Virus record (IMG/VR): IMGVR_UViG_3300042503_000724
Location: 543-64,542 of that record
DNA from: a virus
Taxonomy: Duplodnaviria; Caudoviricetes
DNA length: 64,000 nt
Reading direction: 5' to 3' (one strand)
Within the stretch, counting starts at the first letter, position 1, and each line of letters opens with the position of its first letter. Positions 3,019-60,933 of this stretch are shown here, piece by piece. A program made the translations under genes and the position numbers. The notes under the pieces were generated by a model. That model saw only the letters and a program-made list of their open reading frames with translations. It did not search any database and was not told the DNA's origin.

Positions 3019-3272
3019 TTTATACTCCTTGGTGGATCGCCCTTGGCTCCATCAAAGTAGCATTTTACACCAAAGGATTCTATTAGCTTTCTAACCATTT
3101 GTAAATATTCCATAAAAGTTTCCATCTGCGGAGCATTCATAGACATAATTTGATTTTCATAAATACGAATAGAAATATACTGATCAAACTCTACAAAATC
3201 CACAACAAGTTTTGGGTATGGTGGCTTAATTTGATGAACTGCAACGGACATTTCTTTTGTAAATTTAGCCAT
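3015..3272 (-). CDS. Hypothetical protein
   Basis: Start moved to MAKFTK; in operon with whiB. Confidence 0.65.
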   Translation of the reverse strand: MAKFTKEMSVAVHQIKPPYPKLVVDFVEFDQYISIRIYENQIMSMNAPQMETFMEYLQMVRKLIESFGVKCYFDGAKGDPPRSIK

Positions 3273-3549
3273 CTGACACCGCATCTAAAATCATAGACCA
3301 TACCTCTTTTGTTTTATGCATATTTTTAGAGGGACTTGGCTCTCCATCTACTAAGTATACACCACCCCAAACTCCCCATTCTGAGTTTGTTGTTCCGTGA
3401 TTAAAACACTCTGCTATAACAGGACACTGCAAACAAATAGTTTCATCAACTGTTTTTGCAAGTATTGGATCTTCTTCATACTTATCAAAAAACATTTCAC
3501 GGTCAATGGCACGACACTTAGCCTTCATCATCCATTCTTCATCTAACAT
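3265..3549 (-). CDS. whiB: WhiB-family Fe-S transcription factor
   Basis: W..KAKC ... MFF ... ICLQCPVIAEC ... WGVWGG; start moved to MLDEEW. Confidence 0.92.
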   Translation of the reverse strand: MLDEEWMMKAKCRAIDREMFFDKYEEDPILAKTVDETICLQCPVIAECFNHGTTNSEWGVWGGVYLVDGEPSPSKNMHKTKEVWSMILDAVSDG

Positions 3550-3748
3550 ACTTTGCTGGCACTTCCCAACCATTTTCATTTGGCTCGTAGGTTTTATAGA
3601 ATCCCCATTTGCCATCCCTTAGCAAACCGCCCTTTGACATTTCTCCAAGAGAGTCTGCCTTCCAGTCTACAATAGTCCAGCCATCCCAGTAAAGACCCTT
3701 GTTTTTTTCTACTATAGCGTGTGCTTCTTCGTAACCAATTATTGGCAT
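3539..3748 (-). CDS. Hypothetical protein
   Basis: ORF with AAGGA RBS; LYWDGWTIV. Confidence 0.7.
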   Translation of the reverse strand: MPIIGYEEAHAIVEKNKGLYWDGWTIVDWKADSLGEMSKGGLLRDGKWGFYKTYEPNENGWEVPAKYVR

Positions 3749-4142: not shown

Positions 4143-5045
4143 CTAATTAACTAGATCAACAATAAACATTTTTCCTGAACGCTTGTGTTCAAGGTATCTT
4201 GACTGGGACTTAATTCTATCATATACTTGAGACATTGACAACCCAGGGCTTAGTTCTTTTACTGCTACCCATTTTGCTGCCATAAGTGCACTGGAGTTTG
4301 ATGTTCCAACAGAGTTTGCTGTTTTATTATTTGGTGCTGCTGCAAACATTGTTCCTAATGCAAAAAAGTCAGTGCTGGCTGAGTTGTTGCTATATAGTGC
4401 TGGAGACATTTGCTTTCCATATGCTGGGTCTGTGGCACCAACAGAAATTGATGATGCAATACATGCAGGAAAGTCTATCTTAGAATAATTATATCCATTT
4501 CCTGTTGGGAAAAATGATGGAATATTCTTTGATGCAAGAGAGTTGATTGCATTTTCAATAGGCACATGCTTTGTGCAAGCATCTCTTGAAACATATGACT
4601 GACTCATATTTACCGCAACAATGTTATAAGTTTGGTGATTCTTGTCTACCCACTCTAGTGCTCTTTGCACAGCAGTCAGTGACGTACTTGCCCTAAGTCC
4701 ATTTGCCGTCATTGGAATAATTCTAATAATAACAAGATTAACATTTGGATTGTTTTGAGTAATTACTGAAGCAATTTGTGTACCGTGATAAAAACCATTT
4801 CTACTAGCTCTTGCTGGATCTAAAGTTGCTGCTCCAACACCTTCCATAAAATTAGTTTTATTTGGACAAGTGTTAAAGTCAAGTACACATACTTCGTGTA
4901 CAATTTTTCCAGATACTGAACTATGCGTAGCGTCAATTCCTGTATCAATTACGGCAATGGTGGGCTTGGTGTTACCCTTTGCTGAAGTTCCTGTAATAAC
5001 CAAAAGCAATGCTATTCCAATAATAGCAATAATACTTTTCTTCAT
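4143..5045 (-). CDS. Secreted subtilisin-like S8 serine protease
   Basis: Signal peptide; catalytic triad motifs IAVIDTG, HGT, GTS; NMS; oxyanion TGN; FPA, SVGA. Confidence 0.9.
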   Translation of the reverse strand: MKKSIIAIIGIALLLVITGTSAKGNTKPTIAVIDTGIDATHSSVSGKIVHEVCVLDFNTCPNKTNFMEGVGAATLDPARASRNGFYHGTQIASVITQNNPNVNLVIIRIIPMTANGLRASTSLTAVQRALEWVDKNHQTYNIVAVNMSQSYVSRDACTKHVPIENAINSLASKNIPSFFPTGNGYNYSKIDFPACIASSISVGATDPAYGKQMSPALYSNNSASTDFFALGTMFAAAPNNKTANSVGTSNSSALMAAKWVAVKELSPGLSMSQVYDRIKSQSRYLEHKRSGKMFIVDLVN

Positions 5046-5074: not shown

Positions 5075-5103
5075 ATTATATCAATTTAATTGTTAGTTGT
5101 CAA
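5075..5103 (-). promoter_or_regulatory. Consensus sigma70-type promoter for the protease gene
   Basis: TTGACA-N17-TATAAT with extended TG. Confidence 0.85.
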
Positions 5104-6103
5104 GCCATTGAGGGTTATTGTATGTCCATTTTACAACCTTGTCAATTGACTCTTCAATTGCCATTGGGTGTGTCCATCCAGACTTAGCAAGATTTTCTCC
5201 ACTTAATGCGTAGTGCATGTCGTGTCCTGGTCTTTCTGTATTTGGATCCACCAAATCATAGTTTAATTGCTTACCTGCTGCGTCTGCAACAAGCTGGGCA
5301 AGTTCTAGATTGCTTAATCTTTTTTCTCCAGCAATATGCATTCTTAATGGCAAATCTGCTTCTCCATACTTTGGAAAGTCCTGCTCTAAGATATGCATTA
5401 GTCCTGAGGCTAAGCTTCTTGCATGTAAATAATATCTGCTTCCAATGTCACCCTTATTAAAATGAACAACAACTTTTTCATTCTTGTAAATCTTTTTCAT
5501 GATCATAGCCATATACTTTTCAGAGTCTTGAGTTTCTCCAATGATGTTCATGCTATTTACAATTCCGACTGGAACTCCATAGGTTCTCCAATAGGAAAGG
5601 GCTATGTCTTCCTGGGCAGCTTTAGATGCTGCATACGGATTACTTGGAAGGTGCAGGTCTTTCCATTCCTTGTTTGTTCTGTGCTTTGATCCTGGACCAT
5701 ATACCTCGTCAGTAGATATGTGCAAAAACTTTTCTACCCCCGTGTGTCTTGCCCAATCAAGCATGTTACACATCAATGATACGTTGTTCATGATAAATGG
5801 AGCTGGGTTTTCAATGCTACGATTGACATGGCTTTCACTTGCACAATTAATTACATAGTCAATCTTACCAAAATCAGCATAGGTTACTGGGGACATTGGC
5901 TGTGCTAGGTCTATACCAACAAGCTTTACTCTTCTCATTGCATCTGGGGAGGAGCTAAATAAATATCCAAGCCTATCTTGAATACCACGATGTTTATAAC
6001 TTACTGGCAAGACAATGCTATTGCAATCTGTAGTTTTTAATATGTGCCTAACAACATGGACCCCCATTAGTCCACTAGCACCAGTAACCATTATTCTTTT
6101 CAT
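5093..6103 (-). CDS. NDP-sugar 4,6-dehydratase (RmlB-like extended SDR)
   Basis: TGASGLMG, ASESHVNRS, STDEVYG, PSNPYAASK, RPGHDMHY. Confidence 0.92.
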   Translation of the reverse strand: MKRIMVTGASGLMGVHVVRHILKTTDCNSIVLPVSYKHRGIQDRLGYLFSSSPDAMRRVKLVGIDLAQPMSPVTYADFGKIDYVINCASESHVNRSIENPAPFIMNNVSLMCNMLDWARHTGVEKFLHISTDEVYGPGSKHRTNKEWKDLHLPSNPYAASKAAQEDIALSYWRTYGVPVGIVNSMNIIGETQDSEKYMAMIMKKIYKNEKVVVHFNKGDIGSRYYLHARSLASGLMHILEQDFPKYGEADLPLRMHIAGEKRLSNLELAQLVADAAGKQLNYDLVDPNTERPGHDMHYALSGENLAKSGWTHPMAIEESIDKVVKWTYNNPQWLDN

Positions 6104-7056
6104 TGCATATCTCCAATAATTTTATCTAATTCCATCCACTGCCGTATACAATTATCTCTTGAAAATCTATTGTTAATGTATTCTATTTGTGGTTTTGGAT
6201 CAAACTTATTTTTTCTAATTTCTTTTATTGCTTTTTTTATTTCTTTTGTAAAAATTTTTACCATTTCTTTTTCACGTTTTTCTATATCTTGAAAAGTTAC
6301 TGGATAATTTTTAATAATTTTTGCAAACCCATTAGTTGTTTCTGGTAATGCACCAGCATCAGTAGTAACTACTTTTACCCCAGCACTCATAGCTTCCATA
6401 ACTCCAATACATGCAGTTTCTTCAAATGTGCAGGGATAAGCATAAATATGAGATTTTTGTAAAGTATCTAAAAGAACTTCTTTTGTACTATCTCCATTTT
6501 TAATAATTCTTTCATCTTGATCAAAAATTACTTTAGCCTCATAACTTATTTCTGATGGGGTCATGCAGTCTTCGCATTCGCAGCAATGAATGGTAAGAGT
6601 AACATCTTTGTCTTTTATTTTATTAAAACATTTTAGTAAAATGTCCAGACCTCTTGATGCCTGAGATATATACATAAGGTTTATTTTGTCTTTTGGCTTT
6701 TCTTTAAACTCAATGGGATCAAACTGATTATTTACAATATAAAATCTATCCTCGTCTATAGCAAAATTTTCTGATAAGTTTTTTTTATGGAACTCCGATT
6801 GAACTAAAAACATGCTGGTTATTGATAAAAAATCTGGGTGTACAAAAAACTTTTCTAAGCTCCATGGCATTCTATAAGCTGGAACGTGGCACCAAACTAT
6901 ATTTTTTGTGTATTCTTTCATATTACCCTCAAGACCAGGAAGAACAATTAAATTACAATCTTTTAAAAAATTTGTTTTTGATAAAACATTTTCATTTACA
7001 AAGCTAGCCATGTTTCCTGTACCTCTGTTTCCAAATCCAGCAAATTTTCCTATCAT
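6100..7056 (-). CDS. GT-B (GT4-like) glycosyltransferase
   Basis: RGLDILL, YAYPCTFEETACIGVMEAMSAG, TTDAGALPET; start moved to MIGKF (ATGA overlap). Confidence 0.88.
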   Translation of the reverse strand: MIGKFAGFGNRGTGNMASFVNENVLSKTNFLKDCNLIVLPGLEGNMKEYTKNIVWCHVPAYRMPWSLEKFFVHPDFLSITSMFLVQSEFHKKNLSENFAIDEDRFYIVNNQFDPIEFKEKPKDKINLMYISQASRGLDILLKCFNKIKDKDVTLTIHCCECEDCMTPSEISYEAKVIFDQDERIIKNGDSTKEVLLDTLQKSHIYAYPCTFEETACIGVMEAMSAGVKVVTTDAGALPETTNGFAKIIKNYPVTFQDIEKREKEMVKIFTKEIKKAIKEIRKNKFDPKPQIEYINNRFSRDNCIRQWMELDKIIGDMQ

Positions 7057-7316
7057 TTTTTTTCCTTCATGGCTTCTGAGTGTATTCCCCACTTACCTAT
7101 TGGACAAGAAGCGTCAGCTAGTTTTGTTTTTTGAGGCATAATACATGCACACTTGCTACACTGGGTAGTTACTTTAATATAAAATGGGCATTCTTTGCAT
7201 ATAGCCATTCTTCTTTCTTGTGCTTTATCAGAGACTCTTTCTTTGTTTGGATTAAAAAGGTCCCAAGGTCTTACTGGTTTTAGAGGTGGAACTTCTAAAA
7301 ATTCATCATCATTCAT
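7053..7316 (-). CDS. Cys-rich DUF6171-like protein
   Basis: RRMAICKECP ... CSKCACIM..KT.L..ASCPIGKW. Confidence 0.7.
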   Translation of the reverse strand: MNDDEFLEVPPLKPVRPWDLFNPNKERVSDKAQERRMAICKECPFYIKVTTQCSKCACIMPQKTKLADASCPIGKWGIHSEAMKEKK

Positions 7317-7325
7317 AATAACTTC

Positions 7326-8264
7326 CTAATAATATTGTTCTGGAATATATTCGTTGTCCTTGTAAAGACCTACAGACAGATTTATTTTAGCATAATTTTC
7401 ATATTTTCTAACATAATCTTTGTTTGAAATTAATTTAATATATCTATTTTGAGAAATGTTGTGAAGAGCTATGTTATTTTTTTCAGATAAATATTGAGTA
7501 AAATATTTTCTTTCTCCACCAAATTCATTCTTAAAATCTGTATAAAAATGAGTAAGAGGTAGTTCCATGTTTGGATAAACCATGTAAAAACCGTTGTTTA
7601 TTAAATTAATTCCCTGAATAATTTCTTCATCATAAAAGAACGCTTCGCTGTATGTTCCTGGATTTTTTGCAAATTCTTTATCACTAAAAGCAAAATTTCC
7701 ATTAAACTTTACACACGGATAAAACTTTTTAGGATACAAAGGATCTCCAAACAAAGGCTTATCAGTCCATTTAGCATAAAAATTATTAAAAAATCCAGTA
7801 ATATAAAATGGGTATCTTGAACGGGAATCTAATATCTTTAATCCATCTGAATCATACTTATAAACTCCAAGATATGCAGTTAAAACAATTTTGTCATGGT
7901 TTAATTCTGATTTTGCTTCCTTAAATAAATCAATTAAAATTTCATCCCAATCTTGTTCAAAGTTTGTATGAGAGTCACATTGCAAAATGTAGTCTTGTCC
8001 AGAATATAAAGAGATTGCTTGCTGTCTTGCAAATCCAGTTCCATATTTTGAAAGATCTTTATTATCAAGCTTGTTGTAAACCATCTTTACATTTTTCCCT
8101 TTAAAAGACTTAGAAAGCTTTTTATATAAAGACTTAGAATCTGAAGTGCAGGGCATTCCAACAAAAATTCTTTCGGGGTACTTTGCTTTTTCAAAAAGAC
8201 CTAATATAGATCTTTCAGTTTCTGTGTCATCCATCGTTGCCGTTGAAACATAAATTGTTTCCAT
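7326..8264 (-). CDS. GT60-like (Skp1 hydroxyproline GlcNAc-transferase-like) glycosyltransferase
   Basis: TIYVS, AKYPERIFVG, G.GFAR, QDYILQCDSHTNFEQDWD, NFAF, FYDEE. Confidence 0.8.
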   Translation of the reverse strand: METIYVSTATMDDTETERSILGLFEKAKYPERIFVGMPCTSDSKSLYKKLSKSFKGKNVKMVYNKLDNKDLSKYGTGFARQQAISLYSGQDYILQCDSHTNFEQDWDEILIDLFKEAKSELNHDKIVLTAYLGVYKYDSDGLKILDSRSRYPFYITGFFNNFYAKWTDKPLFGDPLYPKKFYPCVKFNGNFAFSDKEFAKNPGTYSEAFFYDEEIIQGINLINNGFYMVYPNMELPLTHFYTDFKNEFGGERKYFTQYLSEKNNIALHNISQNRYIKLISNKDYVRKYENYAKINLSVGLYKDNEYIPEQYY

Positions 8265-9016
8265 TATTTTTTATCCTTTTCAAGTTCCTGTTTTATAAAA
8301 TCAAATCTTATTTTTGCTAACTCTGTTTGATCTTCTGAAACATCTATGCTTATGGCTTTTCTATTTAAAAGGTAGGCTTCACAAGCAGTTGTTCCGCTAC
8401 CGCCAAATGGATCTAAGACAATATCTTTTGGCTTAGAAAACATTTCAATAAGTTTTTTTGGAATTTCTGATCTAAAAGAATTTTCAACAAAACCAAGGGG
8501 TTCTAATTTTTTTGTAATTTTATTAGAATTATCTTTTGCTGGGATGTTCCAAATGGCTTCAGAATACTTTCTTACAGAGTATGGGTTGCTATACATAAGT
8601 CCTGGGCTTTTTATAAAATGATATATTAAATGATAATTAAAGTTTACTATACCAAGATTATTTTCTTTTACATTTTCTGACCAATTCCATATAAACGGTG
8701 GATTTGCTAAAAACAAATTCGTTTTTTTTAAAACACTTGAAACGTATTCTGAGTATAACGGCTCTGTATTAGAAATGCAAACAAAAATAGATCCTGTTGG
8801 CTTTAAAACTCGTTCCATTTCTTTTGTTGCAGATAGCAAAGAGCTAATATATTTTTTTGTATTTTTTTCAGAACCTATTTGTTTGGTTGGATCTCCACCG
8901 TAGTAATCAAAATCTAATTGATAAAAGGGGGCTTGAGTAACAATTAGATCTACAGAATTATTTTCTAAATTAATTTTTTTAGAATCTGATGTAATAAAAT
9001 TTACAGTGCTGTTCAT
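8264..9016 (-). CDS. Beta-class N4/N6 DNA methyltransferase-like protein with altered catalytic motif
   Basis: SVDLIVTQAPFY in place of TSPPY/DPPY; RVLKPTGS; intact SAM motif VLDPFGGSGTT. Confidence 0.8.
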   Translation of the reverse strand: MNSTVNFITSDSKKINLENNSVDLIVTQAPFYQLDFDYYGGDPTKQIGSEKNTKKYISSLLSATKEMERVLKPTGSIFVCISNTEPLYSEYVSSVLKKTNLFLANPPFIWNWSENVKENNLGIVNFNYHLIYHFIKSPGLMYSNPYSVRKYSEAIWNIPAKDNSNKITKKLEPLGFVENSFRSEIPKKLIEMFSKPKDIVLDPFGGSGTTACEAYLLNRKAISIDVSEDQTELAKIRFDFIKQELEKDKK

Positions 9017-9675
9017 TATCTAAATTCCTTTTTGGTCCACCAGTTTCTTTTGTATTGACCAAATGGAGGATTAAAAATTTTATAAAAATCTTTTGGTTCA
9101 ACATAGTCTTCATTGTCAATAACTTTACTTTCCCATTTATCTCTTTTAAATGGAATAACCTGAATAATTGGAGTTCCTGCTGGAATTACCCCCTCAAATT
9201 CTTTTTTAATTAAGAATGGAAAATTTACTGTAACTGGGTGTTTGTCTGTATCAACAATTCCAGAAAAAGAATAAAATGGAGAATCTCCCGAATTTAAAGG
9301 ATGAACGAATAGGCAGCTATATCCTTTTGGTGTTTTAATGTTCCAAGGATTTACCCACTTATAGGGCTGTGAATCAAATTCTTCTGGGGCTGGATAGGCT
9401 TCCGTTTGTAAAGGATAGTGCTCTGAAACAAAAGTAATGTCATTTCTTTGACCAAATTTTTTTACCTCCCTTGCTTTGTAAACATCTGAAGGTAAGGTTA
9501 TAATATAACCTGCAGTTAAAGAATCTAATATGGGGACACATTTTTTCATTGTGTGCATTTGTTCTTTTACAACAGAATCTTTTCTCCACCAATTTGGAAC
9601 AGCCTTACTTGCTGGAACTGGATGTGGTATATCAAATTGTGGAAAGACGCTGGTAAATGTAATCTTATTTGTCAT
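9016..9675 (-). CDS. DUF6065-like / dUTPase-fold-like protein
   Basis: TMKKCVPILDSLTAGY; TPKGYS ... SGIVDTD ... GTPIIQVIPFKR. Confidence 0.65.
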   Translation of the reverse strand: MTNKITFTSVFPQFDIPHPVPASKAVPNWWRKDSVVKEQMHTMKKCVPILDSLTAGYIITLPSDVYKAREVKKFGQRNDITFVSEHYPLQTEAYPAPEEFDSQPYKWVNPWNIKTPKGYSCLFVHPLNSGDSPFYSFSGIVDTDKHPVTVNFPFLIKKEFEGVIPAGTPIIQVIPFKRDKWESKVIDNEDYVEPKDFYKIFNPPFGQYKRNWWTKKEFR

Positions 9676-9676
9676 T

Positions 9677-10111
9677 TTATTTATTATCCTTTAAGCTAGT
9701 AATTACTGTTGATCCGCCAGAAATGCAAATTTCGCATTCTCCACAAGCATTTTCTATTAATCCAAAGCAAACTTCTCCTTCTCTAACCATTTTTGATGGG
9801 TTAAAAAATCTTCCATCTATGTATTTCCAACCAACAGCAGGAACATCTCCTGGATCTAAATTTTGACCAATTTCTTCAAAGGAAGGATTTGATAAAAATA
9901 AAGATGCCAAACCAGACTGAGCTCTAATAATTTCTTGAACCTCTTTGTCTAAAACAATAGCAATGGTTACTATTTTTTCTCCAAAAGGTTCTGGTGGAGC
10001 TAAATTATATAGAAGTGACTGCTTATTTTCAAATCTTTTTCTTTTTGAAAACCATGCCTTAATAATATCTAGGGTGCTAAGAATAACTACCCCATCTTTG
10101 TGCTTAGCCAT
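9677..10111 (-). CDS. Hypothetical protein, paralog of 10816..11076, with C-terminal Cys cluster
   Basis: IAIVLDKEV..II ... ASLFLSNPSF ... VGWKY; start moved to MAKHKD. Confidence 0.65.
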   Translation of the reverse strand: MAKHKDGVVILSTLDIIKAWFSKRKRFENKQSLLYNLAPPEPFGEKIVTIAIVLDKEVQEIIRAQSGLASLFLSNPSFEEIGQNLDPGDVPAVGWKYIDGRFFNPSKMVREGEVCFGLIENACGECEICISGGSTVITSLKDNK

Positions 10112-10800
10112 TAACTGTATTCCTTTCTTACCCAAGATCTTTTTTTATAGTATGCTTTTTCACCAGTAATTTTTATATTTTGTTTCGCAACTAGGTCGTA
10201 GTTTTCAGGACTATTTATGGACTTCCAGTGTTTTCTTTTTATTGGAATAATTTGTGCATATGGAGTTCCTTCTGGAATAACTCCATAAAAACCTTCTTTT
10301 AAAAAGAATGGAACGTTTCCATTAACTGAAATTTTATCAGAGTCCATAAAGCCAGACATTGTTGTAAATGGTAAATCAAACCTATTATAAGGATGTGTAA
10401 CAATTGTACTATACCCTCTCGGTGTTTTCCATCCCCATCTATTTGTCCAAACAAAATGACTATCTAGATGACCTGCAGGTCTTGGAATTGTTTTTCCAGA
10501 TTCATATGGTCTTTGGTTTATAAAATCTTGCCATGGACCTGGAGAGTTCCATTCAATGCTTAAAGACCCATCTTCTTTTTTACCAACAAATATATCAAAG
10601 GGTGTTACAAGAAGATATCCAGCAGTTAAAACGTCTAAGAAAGGAATGCATGTTTTTAAGCCAGCACTTGCCTCACTTCCATGTGTAGTAACATAAAATG
10701 TTTCTCCATCTTTGTACCATTGTGGAATCATTTTTTTTGCAGGTACTGGTATGTTTAATGGATAGGTTTTATCCGAACATGTAAATTTTATTAATTTCAT
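10111..10800 (-). CDS. DUF6065-like / dUTPase-fold-like protein (paralog of 9016..9675)
   Basis: LKTCIPFLDVLTAGY; TPRGYS ... SGFMDSD ... GTPYAQIIPIKR. Confidence 0.65.
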   Translation of the reverse strand: MKLIKFTCSDKTYPLNIPVPAKKMIPQWYKDGETFYVTTHGSEASAGLKTCIPFLDVLTAGYLLVTPFDIFVGKKEDGSLSIEWNSPGPWQDFINQRPYESGKTIPRPAGHLDSHFVWTNRWGWKTPRGYSTIVTHPYNRFDLPFTTMSGFMDSDKISVNGNVPFFLKEGFYGVIPEGTPYAQIIPIKRKHWKSINSPENYDLVAKQNIKITGEKAYYKKRSWVRKEYS

Positions 10801-10815
10801 TATTATATAATCTTT

Positions 10816-11076
10816 CTAGTAGTAAAAAGTATCGGTGTCTGGGTCGTAAGTTGGTCTAGAAAAAGTTTTTGTTTCTGGGTTGTACCTCCATCCAACCTTT
10901 GTTTCTCCCTCTTTTACTCTAAGGTAAGTCGGCTGAGACAAATATTGTGCTGCAGACTGACCGTCTACGTTAAGCACTTGATAAACAACATTGTCAATCA
11001 TCATTGCGATATCAAATGGCAACCGTTCTGGTTCTGGAAATGGTCTAACCACTTTAGGTAGTTCTTTTTCTGACAT
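10816..11076 (-). CDS. Hypothetical protein (possible fibre-tip chaperone)
   Basis: IAMMIDNVV..VL ... AAQYLSQPTY ... VGWRY; directly downstream of the Cys-rich tip gene. Confidence 0.65.
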   Translation of the reverse strand: MSEKELPKVVRPFPEPERLPFDIAMMIDNVVYQVLNVDGQSAAQYLSQPTYLRVKEGETKVGWRYNPETKTFSRPTYDPDTDTFYY

Positions 11077-11087
11077 AATTTTATCCT

Positions 11088-12425
11088 TTAAATCTTTTCA
11101 ATTGTAATTTCATCTATTTCATATCCTTGACTTGTTGGGGACGGTTCTACAATTATACCATATGTAGAGGTTAGAGCAACACCACTTGGGGTGTATACCA
11201 AGTCACTTCCAATTTTTGAAGTAAGATCTGCATTTGCATATGGCTCAATTGTTATTTCAGAACCACTTGTAGTTATTCTCATGGAGTTAACTATTGATGT
11301 TCCAAGGCTAGATACCACCCACTTGGTTAGCTCTGTAACAGTTCCTGCAACAGACTTTATGACTCTGATATATGATGGAAAACAGGTTTGACAGTTGCAA
11401 CTAATATTGTTAAAGGACTCACAGCTCCAAGCAGTACAGGTATATGCTGCACAGTTGTAGCTTCCAGAACAAAAGCCTCCAGTACAAGCACTCCATACAC
11501 CAGTTGGTGTAGCTGGATTATTTCCAGTAAAAACGTTATATGGTGTGTTTCCAGTAAATGCATTGACGTTGCCTGGATTAAATATTTGATTGTTTCCGCC
11601 TCGTGTGTTGTAAGATGCAATACTTGAGGCTCTACAAAATCTATTTCCTGTTCTATCACAGGCACTCCATCCAGAGCAAGGACGCACAAAGTTTTGTGTG
11701 TTCCAGGATATACAGTTTCTTGGAACGGGGTTTCTTCTCCATGCCCTACAGTTGTTTCCTGGCAGAGCAACAGGAGGATCTGGAATTGTACAGTTTTGTG
11801 GATTACAATTTCCAGTATTCCAAGCATTACAGTTATAGTTATTTGCATTTCCTCCAGTATTAAATGAATTATATACTCCAGTTGGTGAAGGTGCGTTTGT
11901 GTTGCCTCCACCAGTTGCTGCATTGTATCCTCCAAAAGCAAAGTTTGGATTTCCTGGGGTAGCACTTGTATATTGAGCTGTATTACATGGTCCATTAATA
12001 CAGTTTCCAGGGGTACTACAAAATCCAGTAGTGCAAGGAGTATTTACGGGCAGTGTGGCACATTCTGTACAAGTATCACATTGACAATTTTCTCCATTAT
12101 CAATTCCTGTTGTAACAGCCCACCAATCACCAGTGTCTGAAATCCAAAGGGCTGCACCTGATCCAGGGGTAGTCCCCTTTAACGTAATAACTACATCTTG
12201 ATCAAGTGGAGAATCTGGCATTGTAATAGAAGCAATTGGATATGTGCTAACAGAAGAAGTTGTTTTAGCTTTATTTCCAAAAATAGTAAATACTCCACGA
12301 AGAGCTGTCCATTTACTACCATCTGTTGCCTCTCCAAGTTCTCCTGCATCAGATCTATTAAAATTATCTACGAATACATTACGGACTGCTGATGCAATTG
12401 TTGATAAATTTTTAAACAGGAACAT
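11088..12425 (-). CDS. Putative fibre tip protein: beta-sandwich with a 24-Cys, Asn/Gly-rich mirror-symmetric insert
   Basis: Flanks DNFNRSD..LG...G..W and a beta-rich C-terminus; insert spans aa 114-348; last gene of fibre module 2. Confidence 0.7.
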   Translation of the reverse strand: MFLFKNLSTIASAVRNVFVDNFNRSDAGELGEATDGSKWTALRGVFTIFGNKAKTTSSVSTYPIASITMPDSPLDQDVVITLKGTTPGSGAALWISDTGDWWAVTTGIDNGENCQCDTCTECATLPVNTPCTTGFCSTPGNCINGPCNTAQYTSATPGNPNFAFGGYNAATGGGNTNAPSPTGVYNSFNTGGNANNYNCNAWNTGNCNPQNCTIPDPPVALPGNNCRAWRRNPVPRNCISWNTQNFVRPCSGWSACDRTGNRFCRASSIASYNTRGGNNQIFNPGNVNAFTGNTPYNVFTGNNPATPTGVWSACTGGFCSGSYNCAAYTCTAWSCESFNNISCNCQTCFPSYIRVIKSVAGTVTELTKWVVSSLGTSIVNSMRITTSGSEITIEPYANADLTSKIGSDLVYTPSGVALTSTYGIIVEPSPTSQGYEIDEITIEKI

Positions 12426-21866: not shown

Positions 21867-22139
21867 CTAGTTATCATATATAATGTATGATACAGGACTG
21901 TTAATTTTGTCATCTAAACTCTTCTGAATTCTAATCTGCTGAATAGCAGTTTCTTCAGCAATTTTTTTAGATTGAAAAACTACTCCCTTTAATCCACACC
22001 TAACCTTAACCCACTCGTTAATCCCAGTTCTTCTTTGAACTGATGCCTTATAGGTTCCTTTTTCAGGCAGGTATGTAATAACTGCACGATACTGATGTTC
22101 TTCTACAAGCATCTCATCTTTTAGTTTGCGATTAAACAT
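21867..22139 (-). CDS. Hypothetical protein
   Basis: ORF coupled to thioredoxin. Confidence 0.6.
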   Translation of the reverse strand: MFNRKLKDEMLVEEHQYRAVITYLPEKGTYKASVQRRTGINEWVKVRCGLKGVVFQSKKIAEETAIQQIRIQKSLDDKINSPVSYIIYDN

Positions 22140-22425
22140 TATCAAACAACGCTTTCTTTAGTGCTGGCTTTGGCTTAGCCCCAACAATATGCTTTAGTTT
22201 TTCTCCACTATTGTATAGCATAATAACTGGGATGCTATTGATGCCAAGTGCTTGTGCAAGTTCTGGACTCTCATCAACATTGATCTTTAGCAAACGAACA
22301 TCCTGCTCTTTAGATAGTTCTTCAATTACAGGTGTTAACATCTTGCATGGTCCACACCACTCAGCCCAGAAGTCCACGAGGGTCTGACCTGACTTAACTT
22401 CTTCAATAAATTCTACTAGATTCAT
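22132..22425 (-). CDS. trxA: Thioredoxin
   Basis: VDFWAEWCGPCK, INVDE, SIP, VGA. Confidence 0.95.
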   Translation of the reverse strand: MNLVEFIEEVKSGQTLVDFWAEWCGPCKMLTPVIEELSKEQDVRLLKINVDESPELAQALGINSIPVIMLYNSGEKLKHIVGAKPKPALKKALFDNV

Positions 22426-45726: not shown

Positions 45727-48700
45727 TTATGCTTGGGATTCAGTCCACGAAAGCTTTGCGTTAATAAACTTGGAACCAGATGTTTCTAGGTTTGTTGCAA
45801 CAATTGTTAAAACATCTGGACCATTAGGGAATCCTGGAGTTGAAATACTTCCATTTCCACTAAGAATAGATGTTCCAAGCTCTCGTGTTGAACCAAGGTT
45901 ATATGTAGAAATTCCATATCCACTTCCTGAATTTTCTGTGTAGAAAGAGAATATGTTGTCTCCTCCAGTAATAGTTGCTGCCGTTCCATGATACAAAACT
46001 TGAGCTAAAGATCCAGAGCCTACAGAAGTATATTCCCAGCTATCTGGATATGTTAGTGTTGATGATCCATTTGCTGAACTCCATCCAGAATCACTAATTG
46101 TAGATGGATTTAAAAACCCTTCTATAAGGAATCTACCATTTGCAGATGTTTGAATTTCTCTTAAAATTAATTGCATTGTATTAATAACGTCTCTCTTGCC
46201 AAAGTTTCTAGCAATTCCATTATCAACAGATGGTGCTATTCTAATACTTAGTAGGGCATTTGATGCACCTGCAGCAACTGAAAGTCCTGCACCTCTCATT
46301 CTAGCATTAAGCTGGAAAGCTTTATCTTCGTCAAATGTTCCGTCCATGATTACGGAAGATCCCCAGTGGCTTAGAGAAGGGGCACAGGTTTGTGTAATTA
46401 CTTGAACTGAAACCTGACCATCTGTTCCAGTTCCATTTTGAATAGATGAGTCTGGGCTAAACGATACTGTGTTGGCAGTTCCCTGCAAAGCAATTGTTGA
46501 AGATATGCTGTATCCAACAGTTGCAATTGTATTCGTAGAGGTATATCCGTAAGGAACATTTGTTCCGTTTGAATCTTTATTTGGAGAGTCTGGAACTTCC
46601 CATGTCTTTCCATTAAACACACTTGAAATTGTTAAGCTTTGTCCATCTGCAGCAGGATTTGCAGCACCACCAAGCTCTAGAGATGTTGCAACTCTTCCAA
46701 GTTTTGTTCCATCTGCAGCAAAGATAACATTTCCTTGCTGAATACCAGCAGTATTAAAGTTTGTACTTGCTCCTGCAAACAGCTTCATCCTATCTGTATA
46801 GGCTCCAGAACTATATGTTCCGTTTCTAAACGATCCTACCCCAACACTTCCTTGGCTAGTAATAAACTGAGTTACTCTTCTTTGAATTGTAATTGGATAT
46901 CCGCCAACCTTAGCATTATACGATCCAACTGCTGTATAAGAAACAATTTCAGTATTTGTCTTATCACTAATCAAAAGGTAGCCAATAATATCTGTTGAGT
47001 TTCCAGATGGTGCAGTAGTTCTCCAACCTTCAATATCTTTTACATACATTACGGTCTGACTAGAATTTAAAGGTGTTCCAGGAACATCTGCTGCTGTTGG
47101 GTTACTTGTTTGTGCCAATGGAGTTCCTGGAGAAGAGACTAAAACAGTTGTTGGACCAAAGTTAGAAACTTCGTATCTAGCAGGAAGGTTTCCAGAACGC
47201 ATATAGGACTGACTATTTAAATTGTTATTTGGAATTCTATGACAATAAACAATATCTCCGTTTGTTGCTCTTAATCCATAGCGAATAAATCCAGAGCCAT
47301 ACCAAGAATAATCAATATAAAGCATCTGCATTTTTGTTGGGTCAATAATATATCCAGAAGGTCCTGTTCCATCTAGTCTGTCAATGTTAAATTCATTTTG
47401 TGGAATTCTAACTTCTTGGACTTTGTATACCTTTACATTTCCTCCAACAGTTTGTCCTCTATAGGCTGGAGAAATATGCATGGTTGTGTCGCTATCAATA
47501 TTTACAACTCTATAGGTCATGCCTTTAATTACAATGTTTTGGTTTTTCTCTATTTGCTTTAGAAATAGCGTTGAAGTTCCAGTCACAATAGAGCTGTCTT
47601 TAGTTACAGATACTGTTCCAAAAATTGGTTTATTAGAAAATCTTCTACAAGCAAACAGCTTTTGACCATCATATTCAAAGTACATTCCGTTTTGATCATT
47701 GAATAAACCAAGTCTTGTTGAAGATCCTGCCCAATTTGTTACAGTAACAAGAGCATTGTCTCCACTTGGATTTCTGTTTGTAGTGCTAATTGCTGTTGGA
47801 ATTGTAGTTTCAAAGCTAAAAGTATTTTCATCAACAATGCCAGTTACTAAAAAGCTTCCATTGTATGGGTTTGCATCAGTTCCAACAACTTGCACACCAC
47901 TAATTGTTACTCTAGCATTTTCCTGAAGACCGTGATCCTGTACGGTTTTAACGACAATTGTAGCATCTCCAACAGTTGTGTTTGAATAAATTTCAGTAAT
48001 GTCATAGCTTGGAGTTAACTTAGTACCTGTAGAAAATTGAATTGCCTTTCCTGACTGATATCTAAATGTTCTTCTTGACTGTCTTACCTGCTGAACATTT
48101 ACAACGTTGTTTCCAGTTGCTAAAAGTACTCCACCATTATATGCCGTGTGTTGAACATAGGCATCTGGCTTACAGTAAAGCTTTGATCCAGAGACTGTTG
48201 CTGCTGGAGAAATATTTGTTACGGTATCTCCAGTTACGGTAAAGTTAAAGATTTTTGGAGTTGGTGTGGCAGATACTACCCAAGATCCGTTTAAGAATGT
48301 GTTAGTAGTTGCACCATTAATAAGAATTGGAGTTCCTGGAATTAATCCATGTGGATTTGGAGTTGTTACGGTTGCAACGGATCCTGCAACTTCAACCGTA
48401 AAGGAAGAAGACCCTGGAACATTTGCTCCATCAAATAAGTCTCCACCATAAATGCTAGTAAGGTTGCTGTCTTTAATTGAATCATTTCCAACACGACCAT
48501 TTGCAAGATATGTAAACATTTTATTTACATCAACTGTTGGAGTTCCATTAGTAAATGTTGTAATTGCTGATCCTGCAATTGAAGTTGCTACCATAAATGA
48601 ATTAGCTAAAACTGTCTTAACATAGTAAACAGTACTTGTTGATACGCCAGAAGTGCTTGCAGCACTAAATCTAATTGGTTGGTTTGCTGAAAGTCCGTGA

Positions 48701-49365
48701 GCATTTGCGGTAAACACACCAGCAGAAACACCTGTAATTGACGGTGCAGCTGGCTTTGTTACAATAAACGTTCCTTCGGCTGCATCATTTGTTGTTTCTT
48801 GAATACTAACAACGCTGTTTGAAACAAGACCATGATCTGATTCAGTCAATACATATACTCTTGACTTTCTTGCAGTTGTAGTTCCGTCTCCAACAATATC
48901 TGCTACAGCTAAAGAGTTTCCGCCAGTACCCTTTGAAAAGAAAGATGGGTAATTGGCTACCAAGGAAACAGTTTCCCATTTAGAAGGTTGGGTTCCGTAT
49001 TCAAAATCTGTGTCAATTAAAGACTGTGGGTTTGCAACACGCATCTTACCAACAGCATCAACTAGCAAGTCTGACGGTGTAATTTTTTCATCGTACTCTT
49101 CATAAACAATTTGAAGCTTGTCTTTAGAGTCCATTTCATTACAGTTGTAATTTAATACAATTGTTGTTGTTGAAGAAGATGCTGATCCTGCAACGGTGTA
49201 AGATGTGGCATTTAAGTCTGGGTCTGAAAAATTATAAATTACCTGATTTGTTGTTACGTTTGTAATCAACATTAGGCTTTCTCTTTGAATTACTCTTGGG
49301 AGAATAATTTTATCCTCAGAAGGTATGAAAGTATAATACGTTTCCTGCATTACCTTTTTAGCCAT
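45727..49365 (-). CDS. Large virion structural/fibre hub protein (paralog of 13119..16055)
   Basis: Same motif series as its paralog, ending WTESQA. Confidence 0.8.
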   Translation of the reverse strand: MAKKVMQETYYTFIPSEDKIILPRVIQRESLMLITNVTTNQVIYNFSDPDLNATSYTVAGSASSSTTTIVLNYNCNEMDSKDKLQIVYEEYDEKITPSDLLVDAVGKMRVANPQSLIDTDFEYGTQPSKWETVSLVANYPSFFSKGTGGNSLAVADIVGDGTTTARKSRVYVLTESDHGLVSNSVVSIQETTNDAAEGTFIVTKPAAPSITGVSAGVFTANAHGLSANQPIRFSAASTSGVSTSTVYYVKTVLANSFMVATSIAGSAITTFTNGTPTVDVNKMFTYLANGRVGNDSIKDSNLTSIYGGDLFDGANVPGSSSFTVEVAGSVATVTTPNPHGLIPGTPILINGATTNTFLNGSWVVSATPTPKIFNFTVTGDTVTNISPAATVSGSKLYCKPDAYVQHTAYNGGVLLATGNNVVNVQQVRQSRRTFRYQSGKAIQFSTGTKLTPSYDITEIYSNTTVGDATIVVKTVQDHGLQENARVTISGVQVVGTDANPYNGSFLVTGIVDENTFSFETTIPTAISTTNRNPSGDNALVTVTNWAGSSTRLGLFNDQNGMYFEYDGQKLFACRRFSNKPIFGTVSVTKDSSIVTGTSTLFLKQIEKNQNIVIKGMTYRVVNIDSDTTMHISPAYRGQTVGGNVKVYKVQEVRIPQNEFNIDRLDGTGPSGYIIDPTKMQMLYIDYSWYGSGFIRYGLRATNGDIVYCHRIPNNNLNSQSYMRSGNLPARYEVSNFGPTTVLVSSPGTPLAQTSNPTAADVPGTPLNSSQTVMYVKDIEGWRTTAPSGNSTDIIGYLLISDKTNTEIVSYTAVGSYNAKVGGYPITIQRRVTQFITSQGSVGVGSFRNGTYSSGAYTDRMKLFAGASTNFNTAGIQQGNVIFAADGTKLGRVATSLELGGAANPAADGQSLTISSVFNGKTWEVPDSPNKDSNGTNVPYGYTSTNTIATVGYSISSTIALQGTANTVSFSPDSSIQNGTGTDGQVSVQVITQTCAPSLSHWGSSVIMDGTFDEDKAFQLNARMRGAGLSVAAGASNALLSIRIAPSVDNGIARNFGKRDVINTMQLILREIQTSANGRFLIEGFLNPSTISDSGWSSANGSSTLTYPDSWEYTSVGSGSLAQVLYHGTAATITGGDNIFSFYTENSGSGYGISTYNLGSTRELGTSILSGNGSISTPGFPNGPDVLTIVATNLETSGSKFINAKLSWTESQA

Positions 49366-49376
49366 TTATTTCCACC

Positions 49377-52300
49377 TTATCCTAATGCTACATCCGCTGC
49401 TTTGAACGGATATATCCTTGCTGTTTTATTTTTTACTGGTCCTGGAAAAACTCTTACATTAATAGTTGATCCAAGTGGAGGGGATTCAGAAAACTTTATT
49501 CTTCCTTCTGTGTCCAGTGTAAATCCTCTGTAGGATAAAAGACCAGACTGCCAGACATATTCTTTGTTTTGAATAAATCCTGACTGAATTACTCCATTTA
49601 ATGAAACTACTAGGTTTAATGGGTTTTTAACAGTTACGTCTTTGTAGTTATACTTGGGCGTAAATGTGTTTCTTCTACCATTAAAAGAACTAGAAAAATC
49701 ATCTAGCTCAATTATATCAGAATAAAATCCAATTACCTCTCCTGTAACTTCTAAATCTTTAACTTTTAGCTTATTTCCGTATGGATCAATAGTAATTGGA
49801 GCTACGTCTGGCTTTGAGGCTCCAATCCAAAGGGAATAGTTTTTGTCAAAGCTTATAATTTTTCCACTAGGGAAAGAATATGCAACTACTCCAGGATCTA
49901 TAGATGTTGGTAGCTTGTCTGGGAACACTGCCTGATAAGTAAATTGATTAGATGCTGGAACATCTATAATTTCAAATTCTCCAACAAAATCGTCTGATAG
50001 GTACGAGGTTTCTCTGAACCCTGTAACAGTTACTGTTTTTCCAACCACAAAGTTATGATTTGTACTGGTAGTAATTGTTACTTTATTATCTGTTGCAGAC
50101 AAACTTGATACAACGTAAGAGGTGTAGGTTCTAGAAAAAGCTGCTGCTGTTGGACTTGGTTCTGGAGTCTTAGGAGCATAGTTTAAATATCCATCTCCAT
50201 ACAACACAATTCCTGTTGCATCTTCTTTATCTTCTACAATATTTCTATCATTATCAACAAATCCAATAATTGGAAAGTACCCATCGTTCAATGGTTCAAA
50301 AAGTTTGTTATATTCTGTGCTTGTTGAATCTACTGGAATATTTGATAGGTAGAGGTTTTCTCCAGTTACCATGTTTAGCAAAGAAAGTTTGGTTGAGTTT
50401 GTAGGATAAATATAAACGTTATAAAAATATTCTCCAGGATTTGCTGTATCTTCAGAATAAGTTGTTTCAATTTTAGATATTTCAATAGCCGTACTATTTT
50501 CTTCTCCAACAAAAGTTGTAAGGTATGAAGAATTTTTAACATATGTTTTTGGCAAGTAGGTTGGAGTAACATATGTAACAGACCCACCATTAATAAATCC
50601 ACCAATTTCATCAACGGTTCCGTCACCATTAGAGTCTGAGTTTTCTCCAAGTATTGGACCTGGAACAGAATCTGTAAGTAGTTCATAGGTGTTTTCTGTT
50701 GTTCTTGGTAAAACTCTAGCTCCAAATGTAGCAAAGCCAGAAGTTTCTGAATCCTCAATAGAAAATATTGGTAGGCTTAATACAAGGGAAGCACCTGAAG
50801 CAGAGTATGTAACTGCTGGAGCAAAAGTGTTATCTGAATAATCTGTTAACACATTTTGTTTTTGTGCAGTAATGGTTACGCTTGTAGTTGTTACTGTTTT
50901 AACATAGTAGGTTGTATTTGACAATATTCCAGTCAAAAAGGATCCAGAGTCTGCAAGGAATATTTCGTCAAATCTAATTTCGTCCCCAACTTGATATTTT
51001 GTATCTGCTAAATCTATTGGGATTGCTGTAAGATTTGTTCCAGCTAAACTAATTTTTTCTGGATTTTCAATGTCTGTGTAGAACTGAGTCCTAATTATTG
51101 TTTCAAATTTATAAGCATAAAAATTTTGATCTTTAATAAAAATAGTAATATTTGGATTTTCATATAAGGATAATTCTGTATCACTTATAACACTATCAAC
51201 GTTTCCAACAAAATATCTTCTTGTGCCTTCAACAACATATATTGAATATCCTCGTCTAAGTTCTTGGGTAAACTTGGTTCCACTACCAGTTACAATCTTG
51301 GTTCTTTGATTTGCTGTAATTTTACCAGTTACTGTTGGAAGACTACTTACTAGTTTTCCAACTCTAATTGGTGCACTTTGAGTAATATTTTCAATTGGGT
51401 TTGAATGAAATCCAGATTGCAGATAAGCCGTAGCATTTGATGTTCCAGAAAAAAGACCTCCAGAGCCAGCAACCCAACCAAAATCATTTCCACCAATTTG
51501 TGCAGAGTTTGCAAATACATCAGAACCACGGATTCTAGATCCGATAATTTCTGTAGAAGATATTGTTGCATTAGACATTAAAGGTGCTGTAAGAGTTAGC
51601 TTATTGTCATACCATCTTAGATAGTGTGTTGCGTCTCCAATTTTAAATCCATTTGTTGTGGAGTACCAATAATTATTTGCATCTAGTCTTATACCAACAC
51701 CACCAAGACCATATCCGTTTGCTGTGCTAGGAGAAGATAACGGGTCATGGTATCCGACACCCATTGCATTTGTAACTAGAGGAACTGGAGTAAGTGCACT
51801 AGACTCAATGTATCCTCTTAGGATACCGTTAATTTTAAGAACTGAACCTGTAGGGTTCCAGCTAAGACCAGAACCAAGAGAAAACTTTCCAGTTCCTTCT
51901 GCATAAAATGGAGCAGACTCAAACCCACCAGTTCCAATTTGAATGTTTGTTAGTGCATCTGTAGTTCCACCAGTTAGCTTAATCTTATTTGTTCCAGTAC
52001 CAATATTTACTGTATTTGTAAATGTTCCACCAGTAGCATTAATAATTGCATTTACATTTAAATCAGTTCCGTCCCAGTAAATATATTTATCTGCAGATCC
52101 AACTCTAAACTTTCCTTCATCGTTTTTATTCCAGTATTGAAACTCATCAACAATTATAGACTCTGCTTCTAGGGATCCACTAATGCTTACGTCTCCGTTT
52201 TTAAATACTTTGAATACGTTTCCAAATTGAACAACAGCATCTTCTGGATTTACAACATAGTCTGGGTTCTTTAAGAAGTATTTATCTCCCCATGGATTGC

Positions 52301-60382: not shown

Positions 60383-60933
60383 TAGACTTCCACCAAGCTA
60401 ATAGACACATCCCATAAATCATTATGTTGCCCTCTTTTTACAATAGAAAAATCAAAATCGTCAAAGAAAACATTGTACTTTTCAACATTAGTTACTGAGT
60501 TTCCTGTCACTGATGCGTCATATACTAATAGCATCCAAAAATCTGAAAAGTTTGCTTCGTACCAAGCTTTAATGTCTTGACCAGCACCAAAACCATCTGA
60601 AGTAATTTTATTTGAAAGACCATCTGAAACTGCTGGAGTTGGTCTTGTTTTTCTAGAAGGAAGAGATTCCCAAGAAGTACTAAAGGTCATCTTGTCTGCA
60701 ATATGAACAGAACGCATTGTTCCATCAATCATTCTTCTCTTAGACTCAAGTCTTTGTGGTACTACTGATAAAGAAGACCTATTGTCGTCAGTTAAATATA
60801 GCACTTGTCCAGAACCAAAGTCCCATAATCCGTTTGGAACACCACTAGTTAATTGTGCAACTGGGTTAGATGTAGAAAATATAATCAATGATGGCTTTGA
60901 GTATGCTCTACTTAATAGTGCTGGATCTGCCAT
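60382..60933 (-). CDS. Distal tail protein-like
   Basis: Immediately follows the TMP; R.E...RMIDGTMRS.HIADK, W..LPSR, WDVSISLVEV. Confidence 0.7.
   Translation of the reverse strand: MADPALLSRAYSKPSLIIFSTSNPVAQLTSGVPNGLWDFGSGQVLYLTDDNRSSLSVVPQRLESKRRMIDGTMRSVHIADKMTFSTSWESLPSRKTRPTPAVSDGLSNKITSDGFGAGQDIKAWYEANFSDFWMLLVYDASVTGNSVTNVEKYNVFFDDFDFSIVKRGQHNDLWDVSISLVEV

Follow-up and report, generated by a model that had tools for sequence, protein, structure and literature searches.

A tail-fibre-tip gene cassette with a candidate chaperone, helper proteins and exchangeable sugar enzymes in an uncultured lake phage

The IMG/VR record IMGVR_UViG_3300042503_000724 is a linear viral contig of 64.5 kb with an estimated completeness of ~60%, obtained from the metagenome of a lake and representing an uncultured phage. 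The analysed stretch of 64,000 nucleotides (positions 543 to 64,542 of the record, hereafter the window) spans nearly all of it, and 66 of its 69 called open reading frames (ORFs) lie on the minus strand. Among them is a run of ten minus-strand genes that starts with the gene of a cysteine-rich tail-fibre tip protein (11088-12425) and ends with the gene of an RmlB-like enzyme (5093-6103). An initial annotation, made from the sequence alone, had described this run as a candidate dedicated maturation and glycosylation cluster for the tip. Its coordinates and its compactness were found as described, with gaps of at most 15 nucleotides or overlaps throughout (junctions, counted from the tip gene, of 11, 15, -1, 1, -1, -1 and 9 nucleotides, followed by an overlap and a last junction of -4 nucleotides), and the cassette genes are translationally coupled. 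The genes from 12425 down to about 6100 very probably constitute one functional cassette linked to the tip.

The tip gene is the last of the fibre series and encodes 445 residues, 24 of them cysteines. Behind it stand, in this order, genes for a small protein named E (86 residues, 10816-11076), a first DUF6065-like protein (copy a, 229 residues, 10111-10800), an E paralog (E2, 144 residues, 9677-10111), a second DUF6065-like protein (copy b, 219 residues, 9016-9675), an N6_N4-family methyltransferase (250 residues, 8264-9016), a GT60-like glycosyltransferase of the GT-A type (312 residues, 7326-8264), a DUF6171-like protein with six cysteines (87 residues, 7053-7316), a GT4-type glycosyltransferase of the GT-B type (318-330 residues, 6100-7092) and the RmlB-like enzyme, a short-chain dehydrogenase/reductase (SDR) of 336 residues that resembles nucleoside-diphosphate (NDP)-hexose 4,6-dehydratases. 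The GT60-like, methylase and GT4 labels of the initial annotation and the SDR assignment all lie above the Pfam cut-offs; its two DUF labels fall below those cut-offs in the window and are upheld by strong PHROG matches.

As seen in an alignment of eight relatives, the tip protein has conserved N- and C-terminal parts of ~110 residues each, which enclose a hypervariable middle insert with a high content of Cys, Gly, Asn, Ser and Thr. It had no match in Pfam or PHROGs. The profile of the tip family recovered 596 cluster representatives at E<=1e-3 among 1.84 billion proteins, mostly with two matched stretches. With a profile built from the eight relatives, 245 candidate stretches were retrieved from IMG/VR, of which 92 were confirmed and 80 were kept, corresponding to 79 distinct loci. 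The tip hidden Markov model (HMM) matched 76 of these 79 loci. Clustering of the matched loci at 90% tip identity gave 51 groups; after removal of five that had under 3 kb of downstream DNA, 46 tip loci remained.

Neighbouring genes were counted on the same strand as the tip, up to 6 kb downstream for E, DUF6065-like and DUF6171-like genes and up to 9 kb for GT60 and the other glycosyltransferases. E was found in 42 of the 46 tip loci, a DUF6065-like gene in 40 and a DUF6171-like gene in 44, and all three occurred together in 37, so that the gene-neighbourhood association expected by the initial annotation was recovered for each of these helper families. GT60 was present in 17/46. The control set, scanned with the same HMMs, covered 1.05 Mb in 78 loci of other phages, each retrieved via its DUF6065-like gene; E, tip, DUF6171-like and GT60 genes were each found in none of the 78. 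The DUF6065 family thus occurs without a tip in all 78 control loci, and for this gene one of the refuting conditions named in the initial annotation, occurrence independent of Cys-rich tips, applies.

Comparison with close relatives delimits the cassette. The block from the tip to GT4 is 56-89% identical among them and diverges as a unit, whereas the flanks, which are the fibre genes on one side and the RmlB-like gene on the other, are 90-99% identical; the boundary of the cassette is therefore placed between the GT4 and RmlB-like genes. In the divergent clade L085-L088, with tips 30-42% identical, the order tip, E, DUF6065-like, E2, DUF6171-like is retained. Two of its members carry a second, Cys-poor tip paralog with an insert rich in Tyr, Thr and Ser (L085:13502-16625 and L087:17155-20275), which has a DUF6065-like gene, a short E of 54 residues and a GT60 of its own, without the six-Cys gene.

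The AF2 model of E, built from 45 sequences (pLDDT 84.8), is a small chaperone-like beta-sandwich. Structure search returned chain a of 7YPX as the best match (root-mean-square deviation 2.4 over 55 residues, chain residues 1-60), with a Z of 6.0, a value below the level regarded as safe, where a shared arrangement can be due to chance; the next match reached Z 2.6. The same chain was ranked first by Foldseek (E 0.048, probability 0.99), and the TfaMu fibre-chaperone complex 5YVQ was listed at Z 2.5. According to the 7YPX paper, this 162-residue chain is gp25, the chaperone of the Pam3 fibre gp24; its N-terminal beta-sandwich binds the distal, glycine-rich part of gp24, and in structure this domain is closest to the N-terminus of TfaMu. 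Judged from the model, E is likely to be a fibre chaperone of the Tfa/Pam3-gp25 kind in which only the fibre-binding beta-sandwich remains, and the folding helpers postulated by the initial annotation would be represented by this protein.

Known pairs of a fibre and a Tfa-type chaperone (Pam3 gp24-gp25, 7YPX; Mu S-TfaMu, 5YVQ; P2 H-G) share with the window a small gene directly behind the gene of the distal fibre or adhesin, a client with a glycine-rich, low-complexity distal part, and possibly the fibre-binding beta-sandwich, on which the E model superposes. They differ in that E is present as two paralogs and is always accompanied by dUTPase-fold and six-Cys proteins, both of which are lacking in the known pairs. 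Besides the low Z, several points speak against a chaperone function of E. It has no counterpart of the C-terminal trimerising helices of gp25 and TfaMu, its model past residue 50 consisting of short strands only; hhalign gave a probability of 0.3% for E against P2 gpG, that is, no profile similarity and no detectable sequence similarity; and no family was found for E in Pfam and PHROGs (best E 0.006). All 58 homologues of E are unnamed or "hypothetical", except for one with an unrelated automatic name. An 86-residue protein of marine T4-like loci was considered as a relative of E and was rejected as unrelated.

E2 is 27% identical to E and shares its core motif, in agreement with its earlier labelling as a paralog; the alignment with E shows an N-terminal extension and a Cys-rich C-terminal tail. 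Its start is most likely the ATG at 10111 (144 instead of 152 residues), which overlaps the upstream stop codon by 1 nucleotide, because the relative L082 has a stop codon in the upstream TTG-frame extension. The segments of E2 that look metal-binding differ by clade: the window protein has a CxxC-rich C-terminal tail (9677-9770), and that of the L085 clade has a stretch rich in His ahead of its core (L085:9054-9440).

The two DUF6065-like proteins are 33% identical to each other and match phrog_7084 at 4.6e-35 (copy a) and 1e-46 (copy b). Against PF19541 (DUF6065), copy b scored 18.6 with a cut-off of 26.6 and copy a had no match, so by the curated test they are distant relatives and not members. 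A third paralog type in related tip loci reaches 186.7 bits to PF19541, and this domain is found in 12-21% of the members of Atlas neighbours. The alignment contains invariant columns C, D, G, W, P-G-S, D and G-T-P, with C46 and D142 invariant, and G139, D144 and Q172 each occur in 90% or more of the sequences. The AF2 model of copy b, based on 39 sequences, has a pLDDT of 71.2. Its best 22 VIA matches all belong to the dUTPase/dCTP deaminase superfamily, including viral dUTPase-derived proteins (Z 9.8-5.8; next match Z 4.8), and the best Foldseek match is 3ecy (7.7e-4). A 2-oxoglutarate (2OG) oxygenase or cupin fold, which would have supplied the missing hydroxylase, was rejected by the fold search.

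By the accepted motif definitions, the Arg residues of dUTPase motifs II and IV bind phosphates. The DUF6065-like proteins have the jelly-roll fold as well as motif III and the Gln of motif IV: their GxxDxD and Q align to GVIDSD...AQ, motifs III and IV of the chlorella virus dUTPase, with an E of 1.6 that is not significant alone. The phosphate-binding Arg is not conserved in them, the position in motif II being K, R, D or P and motif IV reading G-T-P, and the Gly-rich motif V is absent from their C-terminus, which is poorly modelled. The invariant Cys and the other conserved residues give these proteins an enzyme-like appearance at the sequence level. Characterised dUTPases are homotrimers, and by analogy it may be speculated that the dUTPase-fold proteins supply the trimeric platform that E does not have. 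Complex prediction for copy a with E scored 0.00, which is neither for nor against binding.

The fold assignment is not new. In Iyer et al. 2010 (PMC2938197), a dUTPase-fold protein with a conserved Cys is noted in the dioxygenase/halogenase array of phage Syn9, for which metabolite synthesis was proposed. The window family shares with that array the fold and the invariant Cys, and it has long-form relatives between two 2OG oxygenases in T4-like marine contigs; it differs in being shorter (219-230 residues in the window lineage) and duplicated, in its linkage to a fibre tip together with E and a six-Cys protein, and in the absence of a dioxygenase. The arrangement with the long form is found in L035:9256-11534 and ~70 similar loci (L003-L077), where the gene has a C-terminal "PPECPxH" extension and stands between oxygenases of the P4H and Oxy_5 types. 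Two genes upstream of this trio, the marine T4-like loci encode a 523-residue protein with a faint GT8 match (E 0.0047). In haloarchaeal virus HF2, the DUF6065-like gene abuts the tail module on the opposite strand. Cellular homologues were seen at three loci only, all on contigs of metagenome-assembled genomes. No paper on "DUF6065" or "DUF6171" was found by full-text literature searches.

The six-Cys protein matches phrog_13558 at 1.6e-14, and PF19668 (DUF6171) at 23.0 bits and 1e-4, below its cut-off of 27. DUF6171-like genes were found in 73 isolate phage records, and in the two that were inspected (Syn9 and PSS2) they adjoin fibre or tail genes. The neighbouring GT60-like protein scored 80.2 bits against PF11397 (cut-off 21, 2.7e-22, residues 50-279). 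A D-S-H metal-binding motif, in the context LQ[CV]DSHT, and a downstream His are present in 6/6 aligned relatives; a GT-A metal-binding motif of the form DxD or DxH defines the GT60 family. By phmmer, no solved structure matched GT60 at E<=0.1.

When both strands are counted, GT60 occurs at 19 loci, and in 14 of these it stands between the DUF6065/E genes and the DUF6171-like gene. In two tip clusters the two proteins are naturally fused in one ORF of 476-480 residues (L103:11850-13280 and L122:11874-13316; also L123 and L124), in which GT60 (residues 9-321) is joined by a His/Cys-rich linker to a DUF6171-like domain (~403-473) at its C-terminal side. Because the DUF6171-like protein is linked to the tip and, in some phages, physically coupled to GT60, it may be an adaptor or a metal-binding partner of GT60. 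The link between the sugar enzymes and the tip helper set is supported by three observations: one and the same position is taken by different glycosyltransferase families in different clades, GT60 stands within the helper set in those 14 loci, and the fusion occurs in two clusters.

The GT4 protein matches PF13692 (39.4 bits, 8.7e-10) and PF00534 (3.8e-8), and its start is probably the ATG at 7056. The RmlB-like protein matches PF01370 (136 bits, 1.7e-39); its best NCBIfam model, out of 16 SDR models, is TIGR01181 (dTDP-glucose 4,6-dehydratase), matched over the full length at 172.8 bits and 9.4e-51 with a cut-off of 365.1. The methyltransferase belongs to PF01555 (91.9 bits with a cut-off of 26.7, 7.2e-26) and has the S-adenosylmethionine motif I, DPFGGSG. 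The altered motif IV reported by the initial annotation was confirmed by alignment, QAPF standing where solved N4-cytosine and N6-adenine DNA methylases have SPPY. The canonical (D/N/S)-P-P-(Y/F/W) is absent in all 12 related loci, which have QAPF, QIPF, APPF or HPPY, with Q, A or H in first position, and this subfamily may have left DNA as its substrate.

The enzyme genes vary among the tip loci. The 312 other ORFs of at least 70 residues in the 46 loci formed 150 clusters, of which 93 representatives were scanned with Pfam; the other 57 clusters were short singletons and one 84-residue cluster from two loci. Any glycosyltransferase was present in 21/46 loci. The N6_N4-family methylase was found in 12 loci, 11 of them with GT60. 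GT4, the 4,6-dehydratase-type SDR and a P4H-type 2OG oxygenase occurred in five loci each; three loci each had a Polysacc_synt_2 SDR, GT2 (plus one of a second type), a second GT4 type, GT61, a HAD protein fused to a sugar-1-phosphate nucleotidyltransferase, and thioredoxin; and a sulfotransferase and an APS (adenosine 5'-phosphosulfate) kinase were seen in one locus each. None of the glycosyltransferase, sugar-nucleotide, methylase and 2OG oxygenase genes was present in 19/46. The glycosyltransferase family changes by clade (GT60, GT4, GT2 or GT61), together with different sugar-nucleotide enzymes, and in L085-L088 GT61 and the HAD-nucleotidyltransferase stand where the window has its enzymes. 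In its three loci (L148:6911-7186; also L149 and L151), the thioredoxin gene adjoins the six-Cys gene within the helper set. In the window, a thioredoxin-like gene is located just upstream of the fibre series (22132-22425, minus strand; phrog_22, 3.3e-12). Thioredoxin may handle the many cysteines of the tip.

The region is read here, tentatively and with a confidence that stays just short of even, as a tail-fibre-tip cassette with a core helper layer and an optional decorating layer, the tip being the glycan acceptor. In the core layer, which accompanies nearly all members of this tip family, the tip adhesin would be joined by one or two small E proteins, one to three dUTPase-fold DUF6065-like proteins and the six-Cys DUF6171-like protein. 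The decorating layer would here comprise the GT60-like protein, GT4, the 4,6-dehydratase-like enzyme and the methyltransferase with the non-canonical motif. All of these proteins are predicted to be soluble and to act in the cytoplasm. E and E2 would hold the unfolded, low-complexity Cys/Gly/Asn/Ser/Thr insert of the tip, and the DUF6171-like protein would bring GT60 to it. GT60 could then prime, and GT4 extend, an O-linked glycan with a 6-deoxy sugar, possibly methylated, which would be built before the trimeric tip joins the fibre. Most likely, the sugar enzymes build a short O-glycan of this kind on the tip or on a neighbouring fibre protein. As a precedent, Iyer et al. 2010 (PMC2938197) predicted that collagen-like or tail-collar proteins are modified by hydroxylases and sulfotransferases encoded alongside them. 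Of the dedicated maturation and glycosylation cluster first proposed, the tip-linked set, a probable folding helper and the link of the sugar enzymes to this set are retained, and glycosylation becomes an optional addition: it is not regarded as the core function because only 21/46 tip loci have any glycosyltransferase.

Several observations weigh against this tip-cassette reading. The 46 loci are not phylogenetically independent, and four of them belong to the lineage of the window itself. No glycosyltransferase was found within 9 kb in 25/46 tip loci, and the RmlB-like gene stands outside the divergence pattern of the block. Tips with and without a glycosyltransferase are alike in Ser/Thr content (median 0.242 vs 0.259, p 0.13), in Pro (p 0.30) and in length (p 0.36), which counts against the tip as sugar acceptor. 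Tyr content was the same in the two groups; Gly was slightly lower in the tips of glycosyltransferase loci (p 0.008, uncorrected, seven tests). DUF6065-like genes also occur in quite different surroundings, the long form (~300 residues) between two 2OG-Fe(II) oxygenases of marine T4-like contigs lying upstream of neck and terminase genes, and the gene of Synechococcus phage Sf-CH8 lying in an auxiliary metabolic gene region.

Two known glycosylation systems can be compared with the cassette. Mycobacteriophage-encoded glycosyltransferases reportedly glycosylate the virion, with capsid and tail-tube proteins as targets (this is said to be the work of Freeman et al. in 2023). There, too, glycosyltransferase genes lie beside structural genes, and the host of the window phage is probably also an actinobacterium; the window differs in that its glycosyltransferase genes are linked to a fibre tip that has helper genes of its own, that other glycosyltransferase families are involved, and that the system is known here from genes alone. 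In the cytoplasm of Dictyostelium, hydroxyproline glycosylation of Skp1 is carried out by a prolyl hydroxylase and the GT60 enzyme Gnt1. The window GT60 is likewise a soluble GT-A protein of PF11397 (Pfam name "Glycosyltransferase (GlcNAc)") with a DxH motif, and P4H-type oxygenases exist in a few tip loci, as noted above. The difference is the absence of a hydroxylase: as the initial annotation had remarked, none was recognised, with no match of PF13640 in the 64.5-kb record and none among 62 PHROG-scanned window ORFs. A search of the literature on glycosylated tail fibres and phage-encoded glycosyltransferases gave nothing comparable among the papers listed.

The sugar enzymes and the methylase might instead modify envelope glycans of the host, hiding the receptor as a protection from superinfection or from the loss of progeny on cell debris, and travel with the tip as receptor and receptor-binding protein co-vary. 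Such an activity would fit enzymes that are optional and belong to different families in different clades, a pattern that the tracking of host glycans would produce, and the divergence of the tip-to-GT4 block as a unit; in PMC12801897, glycosyltransferase and epimerase genes of cyanophages are interpreted as host-surface modifiers. The cluster, however, has no membrane-anchored priming transferase, flippase or polymerase. No membrane segment was found in its proteins (highest 19-residue hydropathy 1.62), and a signal-like N-terminus was seen only in the downstream S8 protease. The position of GT60 among the helper genes, its fusion to a tip-linked domain and the two tip paralogs of one genome, each with its own glycosyltransferase, also disagree with this explanation, which we consider rather unlikely. 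The same position and the same fusion argue against the enzymes being unrelated cargo genes (morons) at the end of a tail-fibre operon, with only E and perhaps the DUF6171-like protein serving the tip. To these are added the recurrence of different glycosyltransferase families at one place, that of the unusual methylase, nearly always with GT60, and the coupling of genes by overlaps of 1-4 nucleotides. The 25 loci without a glycosyltransferase, the separate history of the RmlB-like gene and the indifference of tip composition to glycosyltransferases are what cargo genes would predict, and on balance this explanation appears unlikely.

It is very unlikely that the cluster modifies phage DNA, with dUTPase-fold enzymes shaping the nucleotide pool, the methylase and glycosyltransferases decorating bases and the dehydratase supplying sugar. 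The methylase does come from a DNA methylase family and aligns with solved DNA methylases, the DUF6065-like fold is that of dUTPases and dCTP deaminases, and DNA-glucosylating phage glycosyltransferases are known (PMC12801897, citing earlier work). However, motif IV is non-canonical in 12/12 related methylases, the Arg expected at dUTPase motif II/IV positions is not conserved, and the genes lie between the fibre tip and chaperone-like genes in 40/46 loci, away from the replication genes at 30-42 kb. It is highly improbable that the set makes a small product derived from a peptide, for which E2 or another small protein would be the precursor. The Cys-rich tail of E2 and the metabolite proposal made for the Syn9 array with its dUTPase-fold gene (Iyer et al. 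2010, PMC2938197) would agree with it, but this tail is not kept in the divergent clade, the fold of E matches a fibre chaperone domain, and no peptide ligase, cyclase or exporter was seen in the window ORFs that were scanned.

A wider form of the tip-cassette reading, which we rate as rather improbable, would combine E, the dUTPase-fold and the six-Cys proteins into a machine dedicated to the chemical editing of the adhesin's receptor-binding surface. The chaperone-like domain would present the hypervariable, low-complexity loops of the tip, in the manner of the leader-peptide-binding domain of peptide natural-product pathways, to exchangeable tailoring enzymes. These would be glycosyltransferases, hydroxylases, sulfotransferases, a methylase whose target has shifted from DNA to protein, and a dUTPase-fold enzyme that catalyses a new, non-nucleotide reaction.

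With its exchangeable enzyme layer, the cassette is a variant of the fibre-plus-chaperone arrangement that is widespread and as yet undescribed. New in this work are the likeness of the E model to the fibre-binding domain of gp25, the absence of a canonical motif IV from the methylases of 12 loci and the origin of the AT-richness of the run in amino-acid composition. Receptor-binding tips decide the host range of phages. If the tip-cassette reading is true, sequence-based host-range prediction and fibre engineering would miss a layer, namely chaperone maturation and exchangeable sugar, methyl, hydroxyl or sulfate enzymes; if the editing machine exists, host range would depend in part on post-translational chemistry in addition to sequence. 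Testable roles are offered for three families, the DUF6065-like, the DUF6171-like and the E proteins.

At its downstream end the run meets a consensus sigma-70-type promoter (TTGACA-17-TATAAT with TG before the -10 element, 5103..5075, minus strand, 12/12 hexamer matches), and the initial annotation was right in placing a strong protease promoter there. It sits between the stop codon of the RmlB-like gene and the start of an S8 subtilisin-like protease gene (4143-5045, minus strand), 30 nucleotides upstream of the start codon, so that this protease, with a signal-peptide-like N-terminus, has its own consensus promoter. Promoter-like sites in the region as a whole are at chance level (38 found vs 36.7 expected). 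Among the tip loci, the S8 protease is restricted to the lineage of the window (4/46). In Synechococcus phage Sf-FR1, a subtilisin-like protease is annotated beside a homologous structural gene.

The AT-richness noted by eye in the initial annotation was confirmed, the guanine-plus-cytosine (GC) content being 0.285-0.36 for the genes from 10800 down to 6100 vs 0.38-0.41 for the fibre genes. At the third codon position it is alike, 0.18-0.23 in the cluster genes vs 0.175-0.24 in the fibre genes. The dip is therefore attributed to amino-acid composition, with Lys/Asn/Ile-rich enzymes on one side and Gly/Ala/Thr-rich fibres on the other, and low GC as a sign of horizontal or foreign origin was rejected.

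Elsewhere in the window, the PHROG scan identified a tape-measure protein that includes a peptidase domain (60933-63983), large fibre-like and virion structural proteins, a large terminase and, at 30-42 kb, a replication module (DNA polymerase, primase, DnaB-like helicase, UvsX-like recombinase and Cas4-like nuclease). A WhiB-like regulator is encoded at 3265-3615 on the minus strand (phrog_472, 6.4e-16). According to PMC10914622, WhiB genes are a marker for phages of actinobacteria, which are abundant in lakes, and on the basis of this gene the host is probably an actinobacterium. A 978-residue structural protein of the window is 42-46% identical to Synechococcus phage proteins, and a T4-like cyanophage origin had been considered on this basis; it was rejected because of the tape-measure gene, the WhiB-like gene and a replication module of another type. 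When the cluster was compared at the nucleotide level with isolate phages, a single match of 126 nucleotides was obtained and nothing else. The large virion structural protein family (phrog_5838, 4e-235) is represented in the window by a second copy, and there is a further fibre-like protein of 1300 residues (45727-49365 and 49377-53279, minus strand); the phage therefore seems to carry two fibre gene sets ~30 kb apart.

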